From NCBI GenBank assembly GCA_041739995.1, contig JBGSMV010000070.1:1-36071 (forward strand): a stretch of 36,071 nt of DNA, written 5' to 3'. Under the pieces are notes generated by a model. It was not told the DNA's origin. It did not search any database and saw only the letters and a program-made list of their open reading frames with translations. A program made the translations under genes and the position numbers. Each line of letters starts with the position of its first letter. Position 1 is the stretch's first letter. Shown here piece by piece: positions 21,954-36,071 of this stretch. The DNA comes from Bdellovibrionota bacterium. Lineage in GTDB: Bacteria > Bdellovibrionota_C > UBA2361 > JBGSMV01.

Positions 21954-22922
21954 ATGCAGAAATTGATGAGAACGATGAGTAACGCAGAGCCAGCAGAACA
22001 GGCCGTAGAATGGACCGCCAGCGAGGGTGATCCCTCAGCGCGGGTTACTTCTGGCGCACCAAGTGCGCGGGCTGGCGATCGACCTGCGAGCAGTGGTTCC
22101 AGGCGCGTGCGCCTATGGGACGTCTTTGCTGAGCAAGTCGCACTCTGTGGCTCTGAGCTATTTGATATTGAAGTGCCTTCTTCCATGAAGGGCACCATTC
22201 GCATTTTCATCGCTAAGCAGCCTGGGTCAGTATCGGCCAGTTCAACCAGTTCGAAGGATGGCAGTTCGAAGGATGTGAACCCACAAGATTCCTGTATTCC
22301 AGCGGAGCAGACCGACCAACCTGATGGCTGCCAACCAGAGGGCAGTCAACCACAGGGCAGTCAACTTGAGGGCAGTACCGAGAGTAGTGACACAAGCGAA
22401 GTATCTGCAGTAGAGGATCAGGACGTTCCTCAACAAGTATCGCAACAAGGCGTTTCCCTCCAAGATTGCACTCGCGTAAGCAAGCATCTTTCCGTTTTCA
22501 TGGACTCTGAGGAAGGAAAGCGACTTGGACTATCTACGGAACAATGGAATCTCGAAGTTTCAAGCCCTGGAATCAATCGGGTCCTCAAACGCCCAGAGCA
22601 TTTTGACAATGCAGTGGGCGAGCGACTTTCCGTTCGCTTTGCGGTTGAGACTGCCGAATTCACAGTCAATCTGCCTCCCGAAGGAGCAGGTCGAATTACC
22701 CCTAAAAAGCGCCCGAAGAAGCGCGGGAACAAACTTAGCCTTGAACAGAAGGCACAAAAGGAAATCGAGCGAATAAAGAAGAAGCAGGTTGCTACCGGAG
22801 TACTACAGCAGTGCACACCTGAGTTCCTGACTCTTGAATCAGACGATCTTAGTTTAATGGTAAAAATTCCTCGTAGTGCGGTAGCGCACGCACGGGTAGA
22901 TTTTTTGTTCGAGCAACGTTGA
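21954..22922 (+). CDS. rimP: Ribosome maturation factor RimP, enlarged by insertions (start uncertain)
   Basis: LFDIE, IRIFI, GVSLQDC..VS, LEVSSPGINR.L..P.HF...VG; position directly before nusA. Confidence 0.88.
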   Translation: MQKLMRTMSNAEPAEQAVEWTASEGDPSARVTSGAPSARAGDRPASSGSRRVRLWDVFAEQVALCGSELFDIEVPSSMKGTIRIFIAKQPGSVSASSTSSKDGSSKDVNPQDSCIPAEQTDQPDGCQPEGSQPQGSQLEGSTESSDTSEVSAVEDQDVPQQVSQQGVSLQDCTRVSKHLSVFMDSEEGKRLGLSTEQWNLEVSSPGINRVLKRPEHFDNAVGERLSVRFAVETAEFTVNLPPEGAGRITPKKRPKKRGNKLSLEQKAQKEIERIKKKQVATGVLQQCTPEFLTLESDDLSLMVKIPRSAVAHARVDFLFEQR

Positions 22923-24537: not shown

Positions 24538-25350
24538 GTGAGCATGGCGCAGGAAGCTGCTACAGAACAGCGCGCACGAGAGCAGCGCACTCGAACTTGC
24601 ATTGGATGCAAGCAGCGCACTGATCCATCTTCGCTTGTACGCCTTTCCCTGGAAGTGCTGAACGATTCCGTCAAGACGGGGGCTCAAGCCTCGAATACAT
24701 CTTCAGTCGGTTCCCCCTCGACGGCTGCCATCTCAGAAACCACTTCGACCTGTGGTAGCGTGCCTGCTGGCTTTGCTTTGAGCTGGCCTCCTCGGCTAAC
24801 GCTCCTCGCTCCGGCACTCCTCGTTCCGGCGCCCCTCGATCCGGGTCTTCTCGATCCAGAAAGAGCGAAGCCAAAAGATGGGCTCGCCTTGGGACCGGTC
24901 CTCGGAAGAGGCGCCTACATACACCGCTCACTTGAATGTTTCTTAAAAGCACAGCGCGGCAACGCGCTAGAGCACGCTTTTCGACTTCCACGCGGAGCCT
25001 TGCGGGAAAACGGCGGGGCTTTGCGCGAATTCAGGGAAGCGCGAGCGGAGAATAAAGGGCAGAACTCCATTAGTTCTCGCGGCGGGCCATACGGCGGTCG
25101 TCACGCACTTTCGATACTCTGGGATAGTTTACTAAACGAAACTGGACTCGCCCCGGCGGTCAGCTCTCGCGCACCCGCAAGACATGGCTCTCACCAGAAA
25201 TCTGGTTCCGGATCAGCCGGGAGCCCGCTCGGCGCCATGCCGGGACGAAGTTTCGCAAAGTCTCAAACCCGCCCCAATGGAGGTTCGGGTACTCCCAATC
25301 GTGGGATAGATACTAAATTTCATAAAAGATTAACGAGCAAACCAGTATGA
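24538..25350 (+). CDS. ylxR: YlxR/RnpM (DUF448) family protein with large insertion and C-terminal extension
   Basis: RTCIGC...LVR, GRGAYI....C, L..AFR; located between nusA and infB. Confidence 0.8.
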   Translation: MSMAQEAATEQRAREQRTRTCIGCKQRTDPSSLVRLSLEVLNDSVKTGAQASNTSSVGSPSTAAISETTSTCGSVPAGFALSWPPRLTLLAPALLVPAPLDPGLLDPERAKPKDGLALGPVLGRGAYIHRSLECFLKAQRGNALEHAFRLPRGALRENGGALREFREARAENKGQNSISSRGGPYGGRHALSILWDSLLNETGLAPAVSSRAPARHGSHQKSGSGSAGSPLGAMPGRSFAKSQTRPNGGSGTPNRGIDTKFHKRLTSKPV

Positions 25351-30633: not shown

Positions 30634-31950
30634 ATGCCGTCAATTGTAATTACCGGAGCGCAGTGGGGTGACGAGGGAAAAGGGAAACTCGTTGATGCGC
30701 TATCACAATCCGCGCAAGTCGTGGTGAGATTTCAAGGTGGTCACAATGCCGGCCACACATTGGTGGTAGGGGGCGTAAAGACCAAGCTCCAGCTTACTCC
30801 GTGCGGAATTCTCAGACCAGAAACGACCTGCCTCATCGCTGCTGGAGTCGTAGCTAATCCCAGGACTGTACTTGCCGAGATTGAGACTTTGCGTTCTCGT
30901 GGAGTAGAAATTTCTCCAAGTCGACTTGTTATCGATAGAGACTGTCAGTTGGTGCTCGACTACCACCCCATTCTCGACAAGGCGCGAGAGGATTTACTCG
31001 GAGACGAAAAGATCGGCACCACGGGCCTTGGAATTGGACCTGCATACGAAGACCGTGCAGGCAGAAGGGGAGTGCGCTTCGGAGATCTCCTTGACTTAGA
31101 CTCCCTTCGCCCTCGTCTTGAAGTGCTCGTCGCTGAGAAGAACCTGATGTTAGAGCACGTGCTTTCTTCAAAGCTCCGAGTAGACTTTCCCAGTGTCTGG
31201 AGCACGGTAACTTTGGCGGCCGAGCAGCTGCTACCGTTCGTGGGTAACGCGAGCATCATGGTAACCAACGCGCTAAAGCGTGGCGAACGAGTGGTCTTCG
31301 AAGGCGCTCAAGCCACACTGCTCGACGTCACCTTTGGTACTGTTCCGTTCGTCACTAGCTCCTCGACCATTGCCGGCGCAGTACTAACCGGCTGCGGTAT
31401 TGGTCCGTCCGCCATCGACCACGTGCTTGGAGTCGCTAAGGCATATACCACTCGCGTAGGGAGCGGTCCGTTTCCCACTGAAATACATGATGCCATGGGC
31501 GAGCACATCCGCACTCGCGGCGGTGAGTTTGGAACGGTCACCGGTAGGCCGCGTCGTTGTGGCTGGCTTGATGCTTTCGCACTTCGCCGAGCAATACGCC
31601 TTAATGGGTATTCTTCGCTCGCTATCATGAAGCTAGACGTGCTGAGCGGCATTTCGCCGCTTAAGATCTGCACTGGTTACCGCATTGATGGGAAATTAAT
31701 AGAGGATTTTCCAGCACTTAACTCAGAGCTCGCAAAGATTGTACCTGAGTATGTAGAATGCCCCGGGTGGGAGGATGACCTGACAAACCTTCGCAAATTT
31801 GAAGATTTGCCGGCCAATGCTCAAAAGTATGTGCAATTGGTTGAGTCGATAGTCGAGTGCCCCGTCTCACTGGTAAGCGTGGGGCCCGACCGAATCGAGT
31901 CGATTCTCACTCCGAACGGACGCTATCTCCAACAATTTAGCGCTGCCTAA
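30634..31950 (+). CDS. purA: Adenylosuccinate synthetase
   Basis: GAQWGDEGKGK, GGHNAGHT, IGTTG.GIGPAY, YTTRVG.GPFPTE, TVTGRPRRCGWLD. Confidence 0.99.
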   Translation: MPSIVITGAQWGDEGKGKLVDALSQSAQVVVRFQGGHNAGHTLVVGGVKTKLQLTPCGILRPETTCLIAAGVVANPRTVLAEIETLRSRGVEISPSRLVIDRDCQLVLDYHPILDKAREDLLGDEKIGTTGLGIGPAYEDRAGRRGVRFGDLLDLDSLRPRLEVLVAEKNLMLEHVLSSKLRVDFPSVWSTVTLAAEQLLPFVGNASIMVTNALKRGERVVFEGAQATLLDVTFGTVPFVTSSSTIAGAVLTGCGIGPSAIDHVLGVAKAYTTRVGSGPFPTEIHDAMGEHIRTRGGEFGTVTGRPRRCGWLDAFALRRAIRLNGYSSLAIMKLDVLSGISPLKICTGYRIDGKLIEDFPALNSELAKIVPEYVECPGWEDDLTNLRKFEDLPANAQKYVQLVESIVECPVSLVSVGPDRIESILTPNGRYLQQFSAA

Positions 31951-31987
31951 TCACGCGAAAATGAGATTCTGAAGTAGGGATTACAAA

Positions 31988-33418
31988 GTGACCACACACA
32001 GCAGCCAGGTAGAAGAAATCCAAGCAGAAGCCGAGGTCTCCGCTAAATCCTCACGCACCAAGCAAAAGACTGAATCTGTTGCCTGCGTAGTCATAGTGGA
32101 TGACGAAGAGAGCATTCGTCGCACCGTCAGCGCCGTTCTTTCGGACGAGGGCTTCCAGGTTCAGCTCGCCAGCGACGGAGACTCTGGACTTGCCCTGCTC
32201 GAAGAGTTAGCGCAGCAAAATAAATTTCCGCGTGCCGTGATGTTAGATATCTGGATGCCGGGTAGAGACGGACTCGAAGTATTGGGCCTCATTAAACAGC
32301 GCTGGCCTGATCTTCCGGTCATCATGATGAGTGGGCATGCAACCATTGCCACTGCCGTTAAAGCAACACGACTGGGAGCCGTCGAGTTTCTAGAAAAGCC
32401 CCTCGATTTAAATCGCATCGTACAAACGCTAAAGAATGTTGGTGCGGACACGTTTCCAGTGACCGAGGAGGCACCTGCAATTCCAAGCCCCAATGCAACT
32501 ACTAGCCCGAGTCGGACCGATCGCAAGGCACTAAAGTCGCCCGCCTTCGCATCGACCCCATGGGCAGGCAAGCGCTTCCCCCAGAAGACGATACGCCATA
32601 GCGCCATCATGTACGGGCAGGGCCTGCATTCCGGACAAAAGAGTGGGCTGATTCTTGAGCCGCTGCCACCCCACTCAGGCATTCACTTCGCAAGCGTTTC
32701 AGAATCAAGTGTAGTTCCTGCCTATGTGGACTTCGTTGAATCTACTGGATTTGCCACCACCGTAAGACTTGAGCGCACCCATGCCGGCACAATTGAGCAC
32801 TTGATGTCTTCTCTGCATGCCTATGGAGTGAGCAACCTGCTTATTAAGTGTAACGGAGAAGTTCCTGTGCTGGACGGCTCTGCTCGTGAGTTCTGTGCGC
32901 TACTAGACGCAGTTGGCACCGTGGATCAGTCCATTGAAGATCCGACTGCTGACTGGTTTGCTATCCGTATTCAAGAGCCAATACGTATCGGCACCGAATC
33001 TGAATATTTGCTCCTGGAGCCCAGTGACAATTTCCATATTGATTACACTCTGCGCTACCCTGAGCCAATTGGAGAACAGTCCTTTTCATTTACGCTCGAG
33101 GACTCTCAATCCTTCTTAAGGGAAATCGCACCCGCACGAACATTTGGTTTCGTAAAAGACGTCGGCCTACTCCAGCAACAAGGGCTCGCTCTAGGAGGTC
33201 GCTTTGACAACTTCGTACTGCTTGGAGAAAGCGGAGCGATCAATACCGCCATGCGTTTTCCCGACGAGCCAGTACGGCACAAGATTTTAGATGCGATTGG
33301 GGACCTGTTTTTATTGGGTCGCCCGTTGCAGGCCAAGGTCACGGCTCACATGACTGGACATTCAGACAATGTGAAGATGGCTGCAAAAATCGCGGCACTT
33401 CTTCGTGGCAAGTCCTAA
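31988..33418 (+). CDS. lpxC: Fusion: N-terminal response-regulator receiver domain plus UDP-3-O-acyl-GlcNAc deacetylase LpxC
   Basis: REC aa ~33-151 (D38-D39-E40, D87 in LDIWMPG, S115, K137-P138); Pro/Ser/Thr linker; LpxC from Q199 (QKTI, GLHSG, TIEHL, EVPVLDGS, IAPARTFGF, RHKILDAIGDL, GH). Single uninterrupted frame. Confidence 0.95.
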   Translation: MTTHSSQVEEIQAEAEVSAKSSRTKQKTESVACVVIVDDEESIRRTVSAVLSDEGFQVQLASDGDSGLALLEELAQQNKFPRAVMLDIWMPGRDGLEVLGLIKQRWPDLPVIMMSGHATIATAVKATRLGAVEFLEKPLDLNRIVQTLKNVGADTFPVTEEAPAIPSPNATTSPSRTDRKALKSPAFASTPWAGKRFPQKTIRHSAIMYGQGLHSGQKSGLILEPLPPHSGIHFASVSESSVVPAYVDFVESTGFATTVRLERTHAGTIEHLMSSLHAYGVSNLLIKCNGEVPVLDGSAREFCALLDAVGTVDQSIEDPTADWFAIRIQEPIRIGTESEYLLLEPSDNFHIDYTLRYPEPIGEQSFSFTLEDSQSFLREIAPARTFGFVKDVGLLQQQGLALGGRFDNFVLLGESGAINTAMRFPDEPVRHKILDAIGDLFLLGRPLQAKVTAHMTGHSDNVKMAAKIAALLRGKS

Positions 33419-33436: not shown

Positions 33437-34681
33437 TTGAGCGTGGCTTTTAATCACCTTTCCCCACCGAAACTAATTGTTTTACTGGCAACGCGGCTAA
33501 TACGCTCAATTGCTTCGTGCACCAGCTCGACCCTGAGACTTGTGCTCCTCGTTCTTTTATTCTTCTTTCTCATCCTTGATGCCTTCGCCCAGTCTCAATT
33601 AACAGCTTCTCCCCTCGGTAGCCCCTCATCAAGTCTTGCTGGCGAGCACGCTCCGTGGCGTATCGGCCTTGTGGCGAGCCTTACTGGGCCCGCCGGTGAA
33701 CAGGGGAAAAATTGGCTAAGCGGTGCAGAATTAGCTGCCGAGGAGATCAATCTGCGCTCAACTACCAATAGAGTGTCGCTGTCGGTGGAGGATGATCAAA
33801 CCTTACCTGCCAAAGCCGTGACGGCCATGCAAAAGCTCGTCCAAATTCAGCGCGTCCATGCGGTGATCGGCGGGACCTGGGACTTTATTGCAGAGGCGAT
33901 CTACCCCCTTGCCGCATCGGCGAAGATTCCACTGGTTACTCCTACGAATCCAACAGAGATTCTCTCCGACGCCGCGCAGCAGAACCCTTGGATATTTACC
34001 GCTGCGATTTCCCTTCGGGCCGTGCAGGCCGCGGCGCGGGAGTTCATTCAGAAAATGGGCATTCGCCGCATTGCCATCTTCGTTCCAAGTTTGCCTTTCG
34101 GCACAGTGCAAGCGGACATGATCACTCAAGTGGGAAAAGATTCTGAGATCCCAATCGTGTATCGTATGGACTTTCCACCCGACGGAGGATTTTCTGATAG
34201 TGTAAGGACCTTTGCCCTTCGAGTTCGATCTCTCAAGCCCGAGCTTGTGTTTGCCGTGGTAGACTATAACATTCTCGGCCTGCTGGTGGCCGAGTTCGAG
34301 CGAATTCGTTACATGCCTACTATTTTGACCACCCAACATCTTGATGCTGCCTTTGCGCTCGCTGACGAACCGAACAGATACCGCTCTTGCTACGGGATTT
34401 ACCCGTCATCCGTTCTCAATGATGTCTTTAGTGATAAGTACCATTCCCGTTACAAGAAAAGGCCCGGAGTATTCGCTGCTGAGGGGTATGATTCTTTACG
34501 TTTTCTGGTAGCGGCTCTCGATGCTGGCGTCACGTTCAATAAACCAGAGCGCCCGTTTTCTCTCCCCGGCATTCAGAGTACGTTTTCTTTGCCGCCTGCA
34601 TACAGCCGCTCGCTGAGTGATCAAAGCGCTGTTATCATGAGTACCAGCTCAGGACGTTTTATGCCCTGGAGTAGCGACTAG
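33437..34681 (+). CDS. Type I periplasmic binding protein (LivJ/LivK-like ABC substrate-binding family); start uncertain
   Basis: Signal peptide (AFA-Q), IG...SLTGP....G, GAELA.EEIN, EDDQ..P..AV.A..KL, AA.GYD. Confidence 0.85.
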   Translation: MSVAFNHLSPPKLIVLLATRLIRSIASCTSSTLRLVLLVLLFFFLILDAFAQSQLTASPLGSPSSSLAGEHAPWRIGLVASLTGPAGEQGKNWLSGAELAAEEINLRSTTNRVSLSVEDDQTLPAKAVTAMQKLVQIQRVHAVIGGTWDFIAEAIYPLAASAKIPLVTPTNPTEILSDAAQQNPWIFTAAISLRAVQAAAREFIQKMGIRRIAIFVPSLPFGTVQADMITQVGKDSEIPIVYRMDFPPDGGFSDSVRTFALRVRSLKPELVFAVVDYNILGLLVAEFERIRYMPTILTTQHLDAAFALADEPNRYRSCYGIYPSSVLNDVFSDKYHSRYKKRPGVFAAEGYDSLRFLVAALDAGVTFNKPERPFSLPGIQSTFSLPPAYSRSLSDQSAVIMSTSSGRFMPWSSD

Positions 34682-35820
34682 GCTTGGAGTCTGTGGTTTG
34701 ATTTTTCGCTTCGTGCGTGGGCAATCGCCGCTCGAAGATCATCGTCGGTGAGCCACATTCCGGTAAAGTGTCGACTGAGCAGCATAAGTGGAATATGCCC
34801 GTCACCAAAAGGAACAAGCAGTTTTGCCAGCGCTTCACGAAGAATGTTCATGCGCTTACTTTCTAGTTCGGCCTCCTGGCTGGCTTCGAGCTCGCCCTCG
34901 GCCTTCTCGCGCTGGCGCGCATTTCCGATTTCTTCGAGAACCTTTGAGATTGAATTAAGAGTTTCTGAAACGCCCTCGCGAGGTTCTTCTCCGAAGCGTG
35001 CGTTCCAGTTTTGTTGATTGTCGATGGGCCGCTTGGCTATTTCATACGAGGGAAGTTCAGGGGTAGAGGACTTCTGAAATAGCGGAGGAGGTAAGAGCGC
35101 TTCTCGGTTTTGCGCTCTCTGCACTATTTCTTTGAAAGAGCGCAGTGCTTTAACTACCAGGCCAGGAATGCGCTGCACCAAACGCAGACATTCAGAAGCG
35201 AAGCTGCTTAGCCCACACGAGAGCCGAGAAAACAGCGATCTGGATTGAACCGGAACTCCCTCACGCAATTCTTCTTCGTCCTCGTCCGTAGAAACGCGGG
35301 CAGGGCCTTCGCTCTCACGAATGACCTCTTCAAGCTGTTGGCCTCTACGATTGGGACCAAGAGTAGTTACGGGTCGTTCGCCACCCAGCGGCCCCCTCAA
35401 AGCGACCCGGATTGCTTCAAGAACATTTCCAGGCCCTCCAAGCTGTCTCTGAATTTCTCCGCGTTGCTGGAAGCCAAGTCCGGCAAGCACCTCACCAACG
35501 CTGAGCCCAATTAAATCTTTAAGCTGGGTATCGAGTCGGTGTTCGGCGCGCAGCTGCTTCACCGCGACCAGCCCGTCTGAGCTTTGATCGATAAGCGATG
35601 GTGTTCTGCCAATACGGTACGCTGAGGCTATTTCTTCGGGACTAGCTGAAATAGAGGAAGTACGGGCTTGCTCAACAGTGCGACCAGAAGCTTCGCGCCG
35701 TGCCATTTCTCTTGAGATTGAGCTGCCTTCACGAATTCCGAATCGCGCAGGGTCATGCGACACGCGTGCATCTGCACCGCGTTCGAAGTTTGAGGCCTGG
35801 ACGATTTCTTCTTTAGCCAT
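34678..35820 (-). CDS. Hypothetical protein (charged, probably helical)
   Basis: Long ORF (open from 35877; likely start MAKEE at 35820), convergent with the SBP gene; no family recognised. Confidence 0.65.
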   Translation of the reverse strand: MAKEEIVQASNFERGADARVSHDPARFGIREGSSISREMARREASGRTVEQARTSSISASPEEIASAYRIGRTPSLIDQSSDGLVAVKQLRAEHRLDTQLKDLIGLSVGEVLAGLGFQQRGEIQRQLGGPGNVLEAIRVALRGPLGGERPVTTLGPNRRGQQLEEVIRESEGPARVSTDEDEEELREGVPVQSRSLFSRLSCGLSSFASECLRLVQRIPGLVVKALRSFKEIVQRAQNREALLPPPLFQKSSTPELPSYEIAKRPIDNQQNWNARFGEEPREGVSETLNSISKVLEEIGNARQREKAEGELEASQEAELESKRMNILREALAKLLVPFGDGHIPLMLLSRHFTGMWLTDDDLRAAIAHARSEKSNHRLQA

Positions 35821-36071
35821 AGTCTCTGACAGCCTGTTCTCGCAAGATCGCGGCCACACGTGCAGAGCGTGCGGCAAAAGCGCATCAAATCACTCTTGTT
35901 ATGTGGATTCTGAGGCAGGAGTTATCCTAGCGGCGATAAGCCTCATAAAAAAGGTTACCAAAGAGAAGCTGTTTGAGTGGTTGAAGCCTCATAATTCCAG
36001 TTACCGAACTTTTATAAGGTTCTGGAAATATGAGAGAAATAGTAGGTTTTGACGAGTTAAAGCACCGCTAC

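Follow-up and report, generated by a model that had tools for sequence, protein, structure and literature searches.

How the activity of LpxC, a target for antibiotics, is set is a central question of lipid A and outer-membrane regulation. Control is known to come from proteolysis (FtsH/LapB/YejM), from MurA as an activator and from transcriptional regulons of wide reach. A contig from a genome labelled Bdellovibrionota bacterium (JBGSMV010000070.1 of assembly GCA_041739995.1; its whole stretch of 36,071 nucleotides (nt) is called the window below) raises the question of whether LpxC can also be the direct output of a two-component system, as one of its genes (31988..33418) encodes a receiver domain (REC) and LpxC in a single open reading frame (ORF). 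Judging from the sequences compared here, the fusion is probably the organism's working LpxC, in the role of output domain within a response regulator that derives from NtrX and has a cognate kinase of the NtrY type.

Pfam places Response_reg (PF00072) at residues 34-148 (E-value 2.8e-27; 95.5 bits against a cut-off of 30.2) and LpxC (PF03331) at residues 199-469 (E-value 5.9e-78; 262.5 bits against a cut-off of 27, covering profile positions 1-267 out of 268), and the protein passes the NCBIfam lpxC equivalog model TIGR00325 (226.9 bits; cut-off 187.25). The model of the bifunctional LpxC/FabZ protein (NF009667) matches the LpxC part only, with 174 bits against a cut-off of 465. An earlier note, made from the DNA letters alone, had described a complete REC joined to a full LpxC in one ORF; Pfam and the sequence agree with this description, and all residues and coordinates it named are correct. 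In addition to the LpxC motifs of Table 1, an RTFGF motif is found at residues 384-388. The roles given here to individual LpxC residues are assumed by way of E. coli numbering, E270 and H271 presumably acting as E. coli E78 and H79 do. The window chain ends 7 residues past the aligned LpxC core, compared with 29 residues for the E. coli chain (305 amino acids (aa), aligned to position 276), so the C-terminal tail of the E. coli type is absent from the window protein.

An AlphaFold2 model of the window protein, built from 104 sequences, has a mean predicted local distance difference test score (pLDDT) of 85.3 and a predicted template modelling score (pTM) of 0.76, the latter hinting at a defined domain arrangement. 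Disorder in the model is limited to residues 1-28 and 155-177 (pLDDT <50 at 155-177), a short helix is found within the linker at residues 176-181, and pLDDT is mostly >90 in the LpxC domain. The LpxC part matches A. aeolicus LpxC (1yh8) with a template modelling (TM) score of 0.95 in Foldseek (the other listed LpxC chains have scores of 0.81-0.95). Conservation was read from an alignment of 104 fusions that share 43-71% identity with the window protein, and from a smaller set of 35 sequences (A1). Invariant among the 104 are D38, D39, D87, S115, K137 and P138 in the receiver, and E270, H271, T385, F386, H431, K432, D435, D439 and H458 in LpxC; the phospho-acceptor proposed in the earlier note, D87, is thus kept in 104 out of 104 aligned homologues. 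The linker drifts freely except for a short segment before LpxC, in which F187 and G194 are invariant (35-sequence set). That the residues of phospho-signalling are fixed while the linker varies fits selection on phospho-signalling and speaks against a decayed receiver, and both halves of the fusion look functional by sequence.

LpxC was found once in the window genome (91% complete, 81 contigs), so by this search it is the genome's only lpxC, a point raised with the original description; LpxA and LpxB are present. With a sole LpxC beside LpxA and LpxB, the fused enzyme should be the working LpxC, and UDP-3-O-acyl-GlcNAc deacetylase activity is predicted for it. GTDB places the genome in a small phylum with 124 species genomes, which NCBI labels as metagenome-assembled genomes (MAGs) of Bdellovibrionota, Deltaproteobacteria or Oligoflexia. 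LpxC is found in 119 of these genomes (72 out of the 73 of high quality), and in 112 of the 119 the REC-LpxC junction lies inside a single alignment to the window protein. As for the remaining seven, contig starts cut off G064 and G038, G116, G037 and G119 are without assignment, and G007 and G053 have LpxC in frames of 494 and 526 aa (in G007, REC is a second match in the same frame). Two genomes of family f22 (G041 and G042; 1.2 and 1.8 Mb, 80% and 85% complete) encode a very divergent fusion with 35-37% identity, which has one internal TAA in G041.

The fusion extends beyond this phylum. The best 120 matches in a collection of 5.8 billion proteins all have both Pfam domains (named sources call them simply LpxC), and a pattern scan with one genome per species confirmed at least 584 fusion stretches (of 600 listed). 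The best 80 of these stretches were used as related loci: 59 are of the window type (L012-L070) and 21 of the Binatia type (L071-L091). They include MAGs labelled Binatia/Binataceae, Candidatus (Ca.) Deferrimicrobium, Ca. Dadabacteria, Syntrophorhabdaceae and Thermodesulfobacteriota, and no cultured organism is among these 80 loci. Homologues of the same architecture, whose existence the earlier note had left to a database search, are therefore abundant, and the fusion is far from rare: REC-LpxC is the standard form of LpxC throughout the phylum and in Binatia-type bacteria. That note gives a single domain or a fusion to FabZ as the normal forms of LpxC; the FabZ form is known, but the statement is incomplete in this respect. 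No homologous proteins of 834-2380 aa were found on the LpxC region (the 720-aa REC-AAA-LpxC form described below is shorter than that range). In one locus (L045:6084-9287) the frame with REC-LpxC is 1067 aa long; its only Pfam matches are REC and LpxC, and its first ~640 aa are domain-free. Probably these 640 aa only reflect a start codon taken too far upstream, and an N-terminal extension is possible.

That the fusion is an artefact of assembly or gene calling, joining two separate genes, has a negligible probability. The reading frame is continuous, and contigs of other runs bridge the linker: in two out of four runs (X1-X4, all from one study) a single contig bridges the whole linker with zero differences (X2 record 12, 32327-32957; X4 record 20, 32374-32683), whereby the region 32430-32590, which the earlier note had singled out as the place to look for joining reads, is covered twice; no such contig is found in X1 and X3. 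A single alignment crosses the junction not only in the 112 phylum genomes but also in 75 out of the 80 related loci (of the remaining five, four run into contig ends and one, L074, has the longer form), and both domains are present in all of the best 120 database proteins. Based on the contig bridging, the sole copy and the junction alignments across the phylum, a chimeric assembly, a pseudogene and a cryptic second lpxC were considered and rejected.

The receiver is of the NtrX type. NtrX (NF051870) is the best REC-containing NCBIfam model for the window protein (2.3e-30), and with REC alone as the query the NtrX receivers 4d6x and 5m7n rank first in the PDB (E-value 1.1e-26). The window REC and the solved NtrX receivers have the motifs LDIW and SGH..I.TAV in common; LDIW and SGH are found in all fusion receivers and in NtrX, and are absent from the receivers at C26, C64 and C36 of the window genome (its other NtrC-type receivers are without SGH). 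The whole-protein NtrX score of the window protein, however, is 105.9 bits against a cut-off of 600, and Pfam finds neither a sigma54-type AAA+ domain nor a C-terminal helix-turn-helix (HTH) in it. Having an NtrX-type REC, yet no AAA+ or HTH and a score below the cut-off, the protein is derived from NtrX and is not a member of the family. An intermediate form is found in the Binatia-type locus L074, where a 720-aa protein behind an NtrY-like kinase consists of REC, a partial Sigma54_activat domain, AAA_lid_14 and LpxC. Its Sigma54_activat covers profile positions 2-126 of 168 and sits where the short form has its linker, and NtrX is the best regulator model for this protein (255 bits), which implies an NtrX-like regulator as the ancestor of the short fusion. 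An ancestral pair of the NtrY/NtrX type may have gained LpxC at the C-terminus of the regulator, and the short form may then have lost the AAA module, leaving a linker of ~50 aa.

If the receiver descends from NtrX, which kinase belongs to it? An NtrY-like kinase gene is found directly 5' of the fusion, on the same strand, in 18 out of the 80 loci (tblastn), and all 18 are Binatia-type loci; out of the other three Binatia-type loci, L072 and L073 are without the kinase and L089 has no upstream DNA. The adjacent kinases have the domains HAMP, PAS, HisKA and HATPase_c, and four of the six kinases scanned have NtrY_N too (the fusion-adjacent kinases score 30.7-37.7 bits for it in L082, L087, L090 and L084 and 24.2 bits in L074, with a cut-off of 23.2).

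Inspection of the gene context found no kinase gene in the window. Elsewhere in the window genome (at C23) there is a single clear orthologue of these kinases: it matches the L087 kinase with an E-value of 3.2e-124 and 37% identity over residues 54-737, and the next kinase has 1.7e-18. At E <= 1e-40 a kinase orthologue is found in 116 out of 124 phylum genomes (73/73 of the high-quality ones), nearly always as one match. The gene order at C23 is ruvA, ruvB, a 190-aa ORF, the kinase and FBPase, and that of the Binatia-type locus L076 is ruvA, ruvB, the kinase and REC-LpxC; the common order ruvA-ruvB-kinase suggests that an ancestral operon was split in the window's phylum. None of 13 examined loci of this kinase has a REC near it (~8 kb on each side in the window genome, ~1.5 kb on each side in 11 relatives). 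A small ORF lies 5' of the kinase in 10 out of 12 loci, with DUF4390 as its best Pfam family in all 10 and above the cut-off in four of them. DUF4390 is the family of PlrP; in beta- and gammaproteobacteria, according to the available part of one report, PlrP is the third component beside NtrY-family kinases, a periplasmic protein with its gene 5' of the kinase gene (PMC13001219). The same portion of that report maps DUF4390 within the Proteobacteria (beta, gamma, Magnetococcia and zeta; PMC13001219), a range that the window's phylum would widen.

Taken together, we lean towards a system in which the single-copy NtrY-like membrane kinase and its PlrP-like partner set the phosphorylation of D87 and thereby change the output of LpxC post-translationally. 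A signal from the envelope or periplasm would determine how the NtrY-like kinase balances its kinase and phosphatase activities; phosphorylation of D87 would change the alpha4-beta5-alpha5 face of the receiver; the output of LpxC would change through relieved or imposed intramolecular inhibition (as in CheB), dimerisation or altered stability; and the flux into lipid A would shift along with it. Phosphotransfer between the unlinked kinase and the fusion is what we infer, as is any effect on LpxC, including its direction. Our guess, by analogy, would be that phosphorylation inhibits LpxC, because NtrYX represses lpxC transcription in alphaproteobacteria. For the fuller statement, that the PlrP-like protein and the NtrY-like kinase feed the receiver fused to LpxC, that phosphorylation of D87 switches the enzyme directly and that a transcriptional link between NtrX and lpxC has thereby been hard-wired, we would put the chances at about even.

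Several observations count against pairing the fusion with this kinase. The C23 kinase matches NtrY_N with 18 bits, below the Pfam cut-off of 23.2, and the 190-aa ORF beside it reaches 15.7 bits for DUF4390, whose cut-off is 27. The two genomes with the divergent fusion, G041 and G042 (80% and 85% complete), yield no match to the kinase at E <= 1e-40. None of the 59 window-type loci has a kinase of this family beside the fusion, and as kinase and fusion are unlinked throughout the phylum, the pairing rests on orthology. In two of these loci (L017:5538-7843 and L024:5367-7636) the genes of an HDOD protein and of a PAS-HisKA-HATPase kinase lie upstream of the fusion in divergent orientation, and this pair could be another input to it; a large hybrid PAS kinase adjoins the pair in L024. 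The window genome also encodes a competing orphan, the NtrC/AtoC-type sigma54 regulator at C26, which has no kinase beside it (its neighbours encode a TPR protein and an AIR-synthase-related protein, and lpxA lies ~19 kb off on the same contig). When only the REC domains of five kinase-adjacent fusions were used as queries, the window REC was the best match in its own genome for four of them, narrowly, with C26 at 87 vs 100, 95 vs 104, 80 vs 95 and 96 vs 110 bits; for the fifth, the REC of L074, C26 outscores the window REC (98 vs 88 bits). By these scores the C26 regulator would be a serious candidate as partner of the kinase, either instead of the fusion or in addition to it.

A genuine phospho-switch with another donor, for instance a kinase of the HDOD-associated PAS type or a small donor such as acetyl phosphate, with the NtrY-like kinase serving the C26 regulator, would account for the missing linkage across the phylum, for the closely similar REC of an orphan regulator and for the HDOD/PAS-kinase pair of L017 and L024. 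We nevertheless regard it as unlikely, since the 18 loci of other lineages tie the kinase family to the REC family by adjacency, the window REC has LDIW and SGH as the kinase-adjacent fusions and NtrX do, where C26 has LDVLMP and TATNT, and kinase and fusion are both near-universal in the phylum, almost always as single matches. The phosphorylation of REC could also mainly decide whether LpxC is degraded: the receiver would be a conditional degron, or a handle for an adaptor, and would take the place of the FtsH/LapB route. In E. coli the level of LpxC is the controlled variable, according to the accessible text of a 2025 review (PMC12444477), and the absence of the E. coli-type tail from the window protein points the same way, as does the lack of a match to the LapB zinc-ribbon (PF18073) in the 91%-complete window genome, a weak test whose control search is unspecific (the profile matches 11 out of 14 genomes, including Gram-positives). 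But the fusion has no gene of an adaptor or protease linked to it, and this route would be a sub-mechanism of the kinase-driven switch rather than a true alternative to it; as the main mode of control we think it improbable. Phosphorylation-independent receivers exist in other families, and with no kinase adjacent to the fusion in the phylum, the receiver might no longer signal and serve LpxC as a structural, dimerisation or localisation module. Degenerate receivers usually lose the residues of phospho-chemistry, however, whereas here 104 sequences from several phyla all keep D38, D39, D87, S115 and K137 even as the linker drifts, and the kinase adjoins the fusion in 18 loci, which makes a silent receiver very improbable.

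For regulators with an enzyme as output, the likely principle is that phosphorylation relieves or imposes inhibition, or drives dimerisation. CheB (REC-methylesterase), PleD and WspR (REC-GGDEF) and RpfG (REC-HD-GYP) have, like the fusion, a receiver at the N-terminus that a flexible linker joins to an enzyme at the C-terminus; their outputs are signalling enzymes, whereas here the output belongs to lipid A biosynthesis, and the resemblance is one of possible working, not of family membership. Enzyme-output response regulators are thus a known kind, to which REC-LpxC adds LpxC as an output. A close likeness is to NtrY/NtrX (PlrS/PlrR with PlrP in Bordetella): an NtrX-type receiver, a HAMP-PAS-HisKA-HATPase kinase and, 5' of the kinase, a DUF4390 or DUF4390-like gene are common to both, kinase orthologues of the Binatia type pass the NtrY_N cut-off, and NtrYX already affects lpxC and lipopolysaccharide (LPS) levels. 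NtrX differs in that it binds DNA, has a large regulon and acts on lpxC by transcription, while the fusion has LpxC as output and neither sigma54-AAA nor HTH; the unlinked kinase gene of the window genome is a further difference. To these systems the window adds the case of an entire phylum where kinase and fusion are two separate orphans, the ruvAB-kinase synteny, the DUF4390-like neighbour and a rival orphan of the NtrC type.

Transcriptional links between two-component systems and lpxC have been reported. In R. sphaeroides, deletion of ntrYX raises lpxC mRNA 8.8-fold and also LPS, an effect that the authors, in the available part of their paper, suggest to be indirect (PMC7240162); for R. 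sphaeroides as well as C. crescentus the accessible text of the 2025 review states that NtrYX inhibits lpxC transcription, adding that its regulon is large and that it does not 'specifically modulate LpxC activity' (PMC12444477). D. vulgaris has an NtrC-family regulator with lpxC as its single mapped target (PMC3333781, available portion); this system, DVU2931/DVU2934, resembles the fusion in being a two-component system dedicated to lpxC, and differs in that control is transcriptional, by a separate regulator that binds the lpxC promoter, with no fusion described in that portion (PMC3333781). FtsH/LapB/YejM in E. coli and the activation by MurA in P. aeruginosa are unlike the fusion as they use separate proteins (a protease and an adaptor, or an activating enzyme). 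LpxC/FabZ (NF009667) is the other known multidomain LpxC, but its partner is a fatty-acid dehydratase at the C-terminus instead of a signalling domain at the N-terminus. In the 2025 review of lipid A regulation the words 'receiver', 'fusion' and 'fused' are absent, and control of LpxC by phosphorylation or by fusion is not among the modes of control in its accessible text (PMC12444477). The earlier note knew of no characterised example, and we found none either in the searchable full-text literature (subscription journals were outside its reach).

A receiver on the sole LpxC points to direct signal control of outer-membrane synthesis. If the proposal is true, this would be the first two-component system with an essential envelope biosynthetic enzyme as its output, and a record of a transcriptional link (NtrX on lpxC) hard-wired into a protein fusion, with surviving intermediate forms that show the evolution from an NtrX-type regulator. 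The path from sensor to enzyme would then be the shortest possible, specific to LpxC and conserved across several uncultured phyla. Because the output is a single, easily assayed enzyme rather than a regulon, the fusion also offers a testable handle on what NtrY-family kinases sense.

Table 1. Positions of the fusion gene, its domains and motifs, its neighbours and the unlinked genes discussed in the text (window coordinates unless a locus is named)
Feature	Position	Strand	Evidence and remarks
REC-LpxC fusion gene, 476 aa, GTG start	31988..33418	+	One uninterrupted ORF; sole LpxC match in the genome
AGGGA, Shine-Dalgarno-like, 7 nt 5' of the GTG	31976..31980	+	Read from the sequence
REC domain, NtrX type, residues 34-148	32087..32431	+	Pfam PF00072, NCBIfam and PDB matches; pLDDT ~95
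Acidic pocket D38 D39 E40	32099..32107	+	D38, D39 invariant; E40 >=90% conserved (104 sequences)
Predicted phospho-acceptor D87 in LDIWMP motif	32246..32248	+	Invariant (104/104); LDIW common to solved NtrX receivers
Switch residue S115 in SGH motif	32330..32332	+	S115, G116 and H117 invariant (104 sequences)
K137-P138, conserved receiver lysine and cis-proline	32396..32401	+	Invariant (104 sequences)
Linker, residues 149-198	32432..32581	+	Variable P/S/T/A-rich part, then conserved pre-LpxC segment (F187, G194)
LpxC deacetylase domain, residues 199-469	32582..33394	+	PF03331; TIGR00325 above cut-off; Foldseek TM 0.95 to 1yh8
E270-H271 (EH), presumed catalytic Glu and first zinc His	32795..32800	+	Invariant; aligns with EH of solved LpxC chains
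H431 K432 ... D435 (HKxLD), presumed zinc ligands	33278..33292	+	Invariant; aligned to solved LpxC chains
H458 (GH, 457-458), presumed general-acid His	33359..33361	+	Invariant (104 sequences)
purA (adenylosuccinate synthetase)	30634..31950	+	Ends 37 nt before the fusion start; last gene of its run
Periplasmic solute-binding protein (Peripla_BP_6), 3' of the fusion	33437..34681	+	Context only, outside the system
NtrY-like kinase, candidate partner	G000:C23:78279-80567		HAMP-PAS-HisKA-HATPase_c; unlinked to the fusion
190-aa ORF directly 5' of the C23 kinase	L097:10597-11169	-	DUF4390-like, 15.7 bits (cut-off 27)
Orphan NtrC/AtoC-type sigma54 regulator, 538 aa	G000:C26, L110:8043-9659	+	REC, intact Sigma54_activat, AAA lid, HTH_8

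From the in-frame stop upstream to the first strand of REC, the GTG start of the fusion is the sole ATG, GTG or TTG codon. The gene run on its 5' side in the window is rimP-nusA-ylxR-infB-rbfA-DHH-truB-purA, and the order DHH-truB-purA-fusion recurs in five related loci (L029, L032, L051, L059 and L062). A 3-hydroxyacyl-CoA dehydrogenase gene and mreB recur 3' of REC-LpxC in L029, L046 and L062, and not in the window. Convergent with the solute-binding protein gene is an ORF of 399 aa (window 34678-35877, minus strand) for which no Pfam match is found even at an E-value of 0.05. The ORFs of rimP (21954-22922) and ylxR (24538-25350) in the window are unusually long, with 322 and 270 aa, and have their Pfam domains far from the N-terminus: either these proteins have long N-terminal extensions or the true starts are further downstream.

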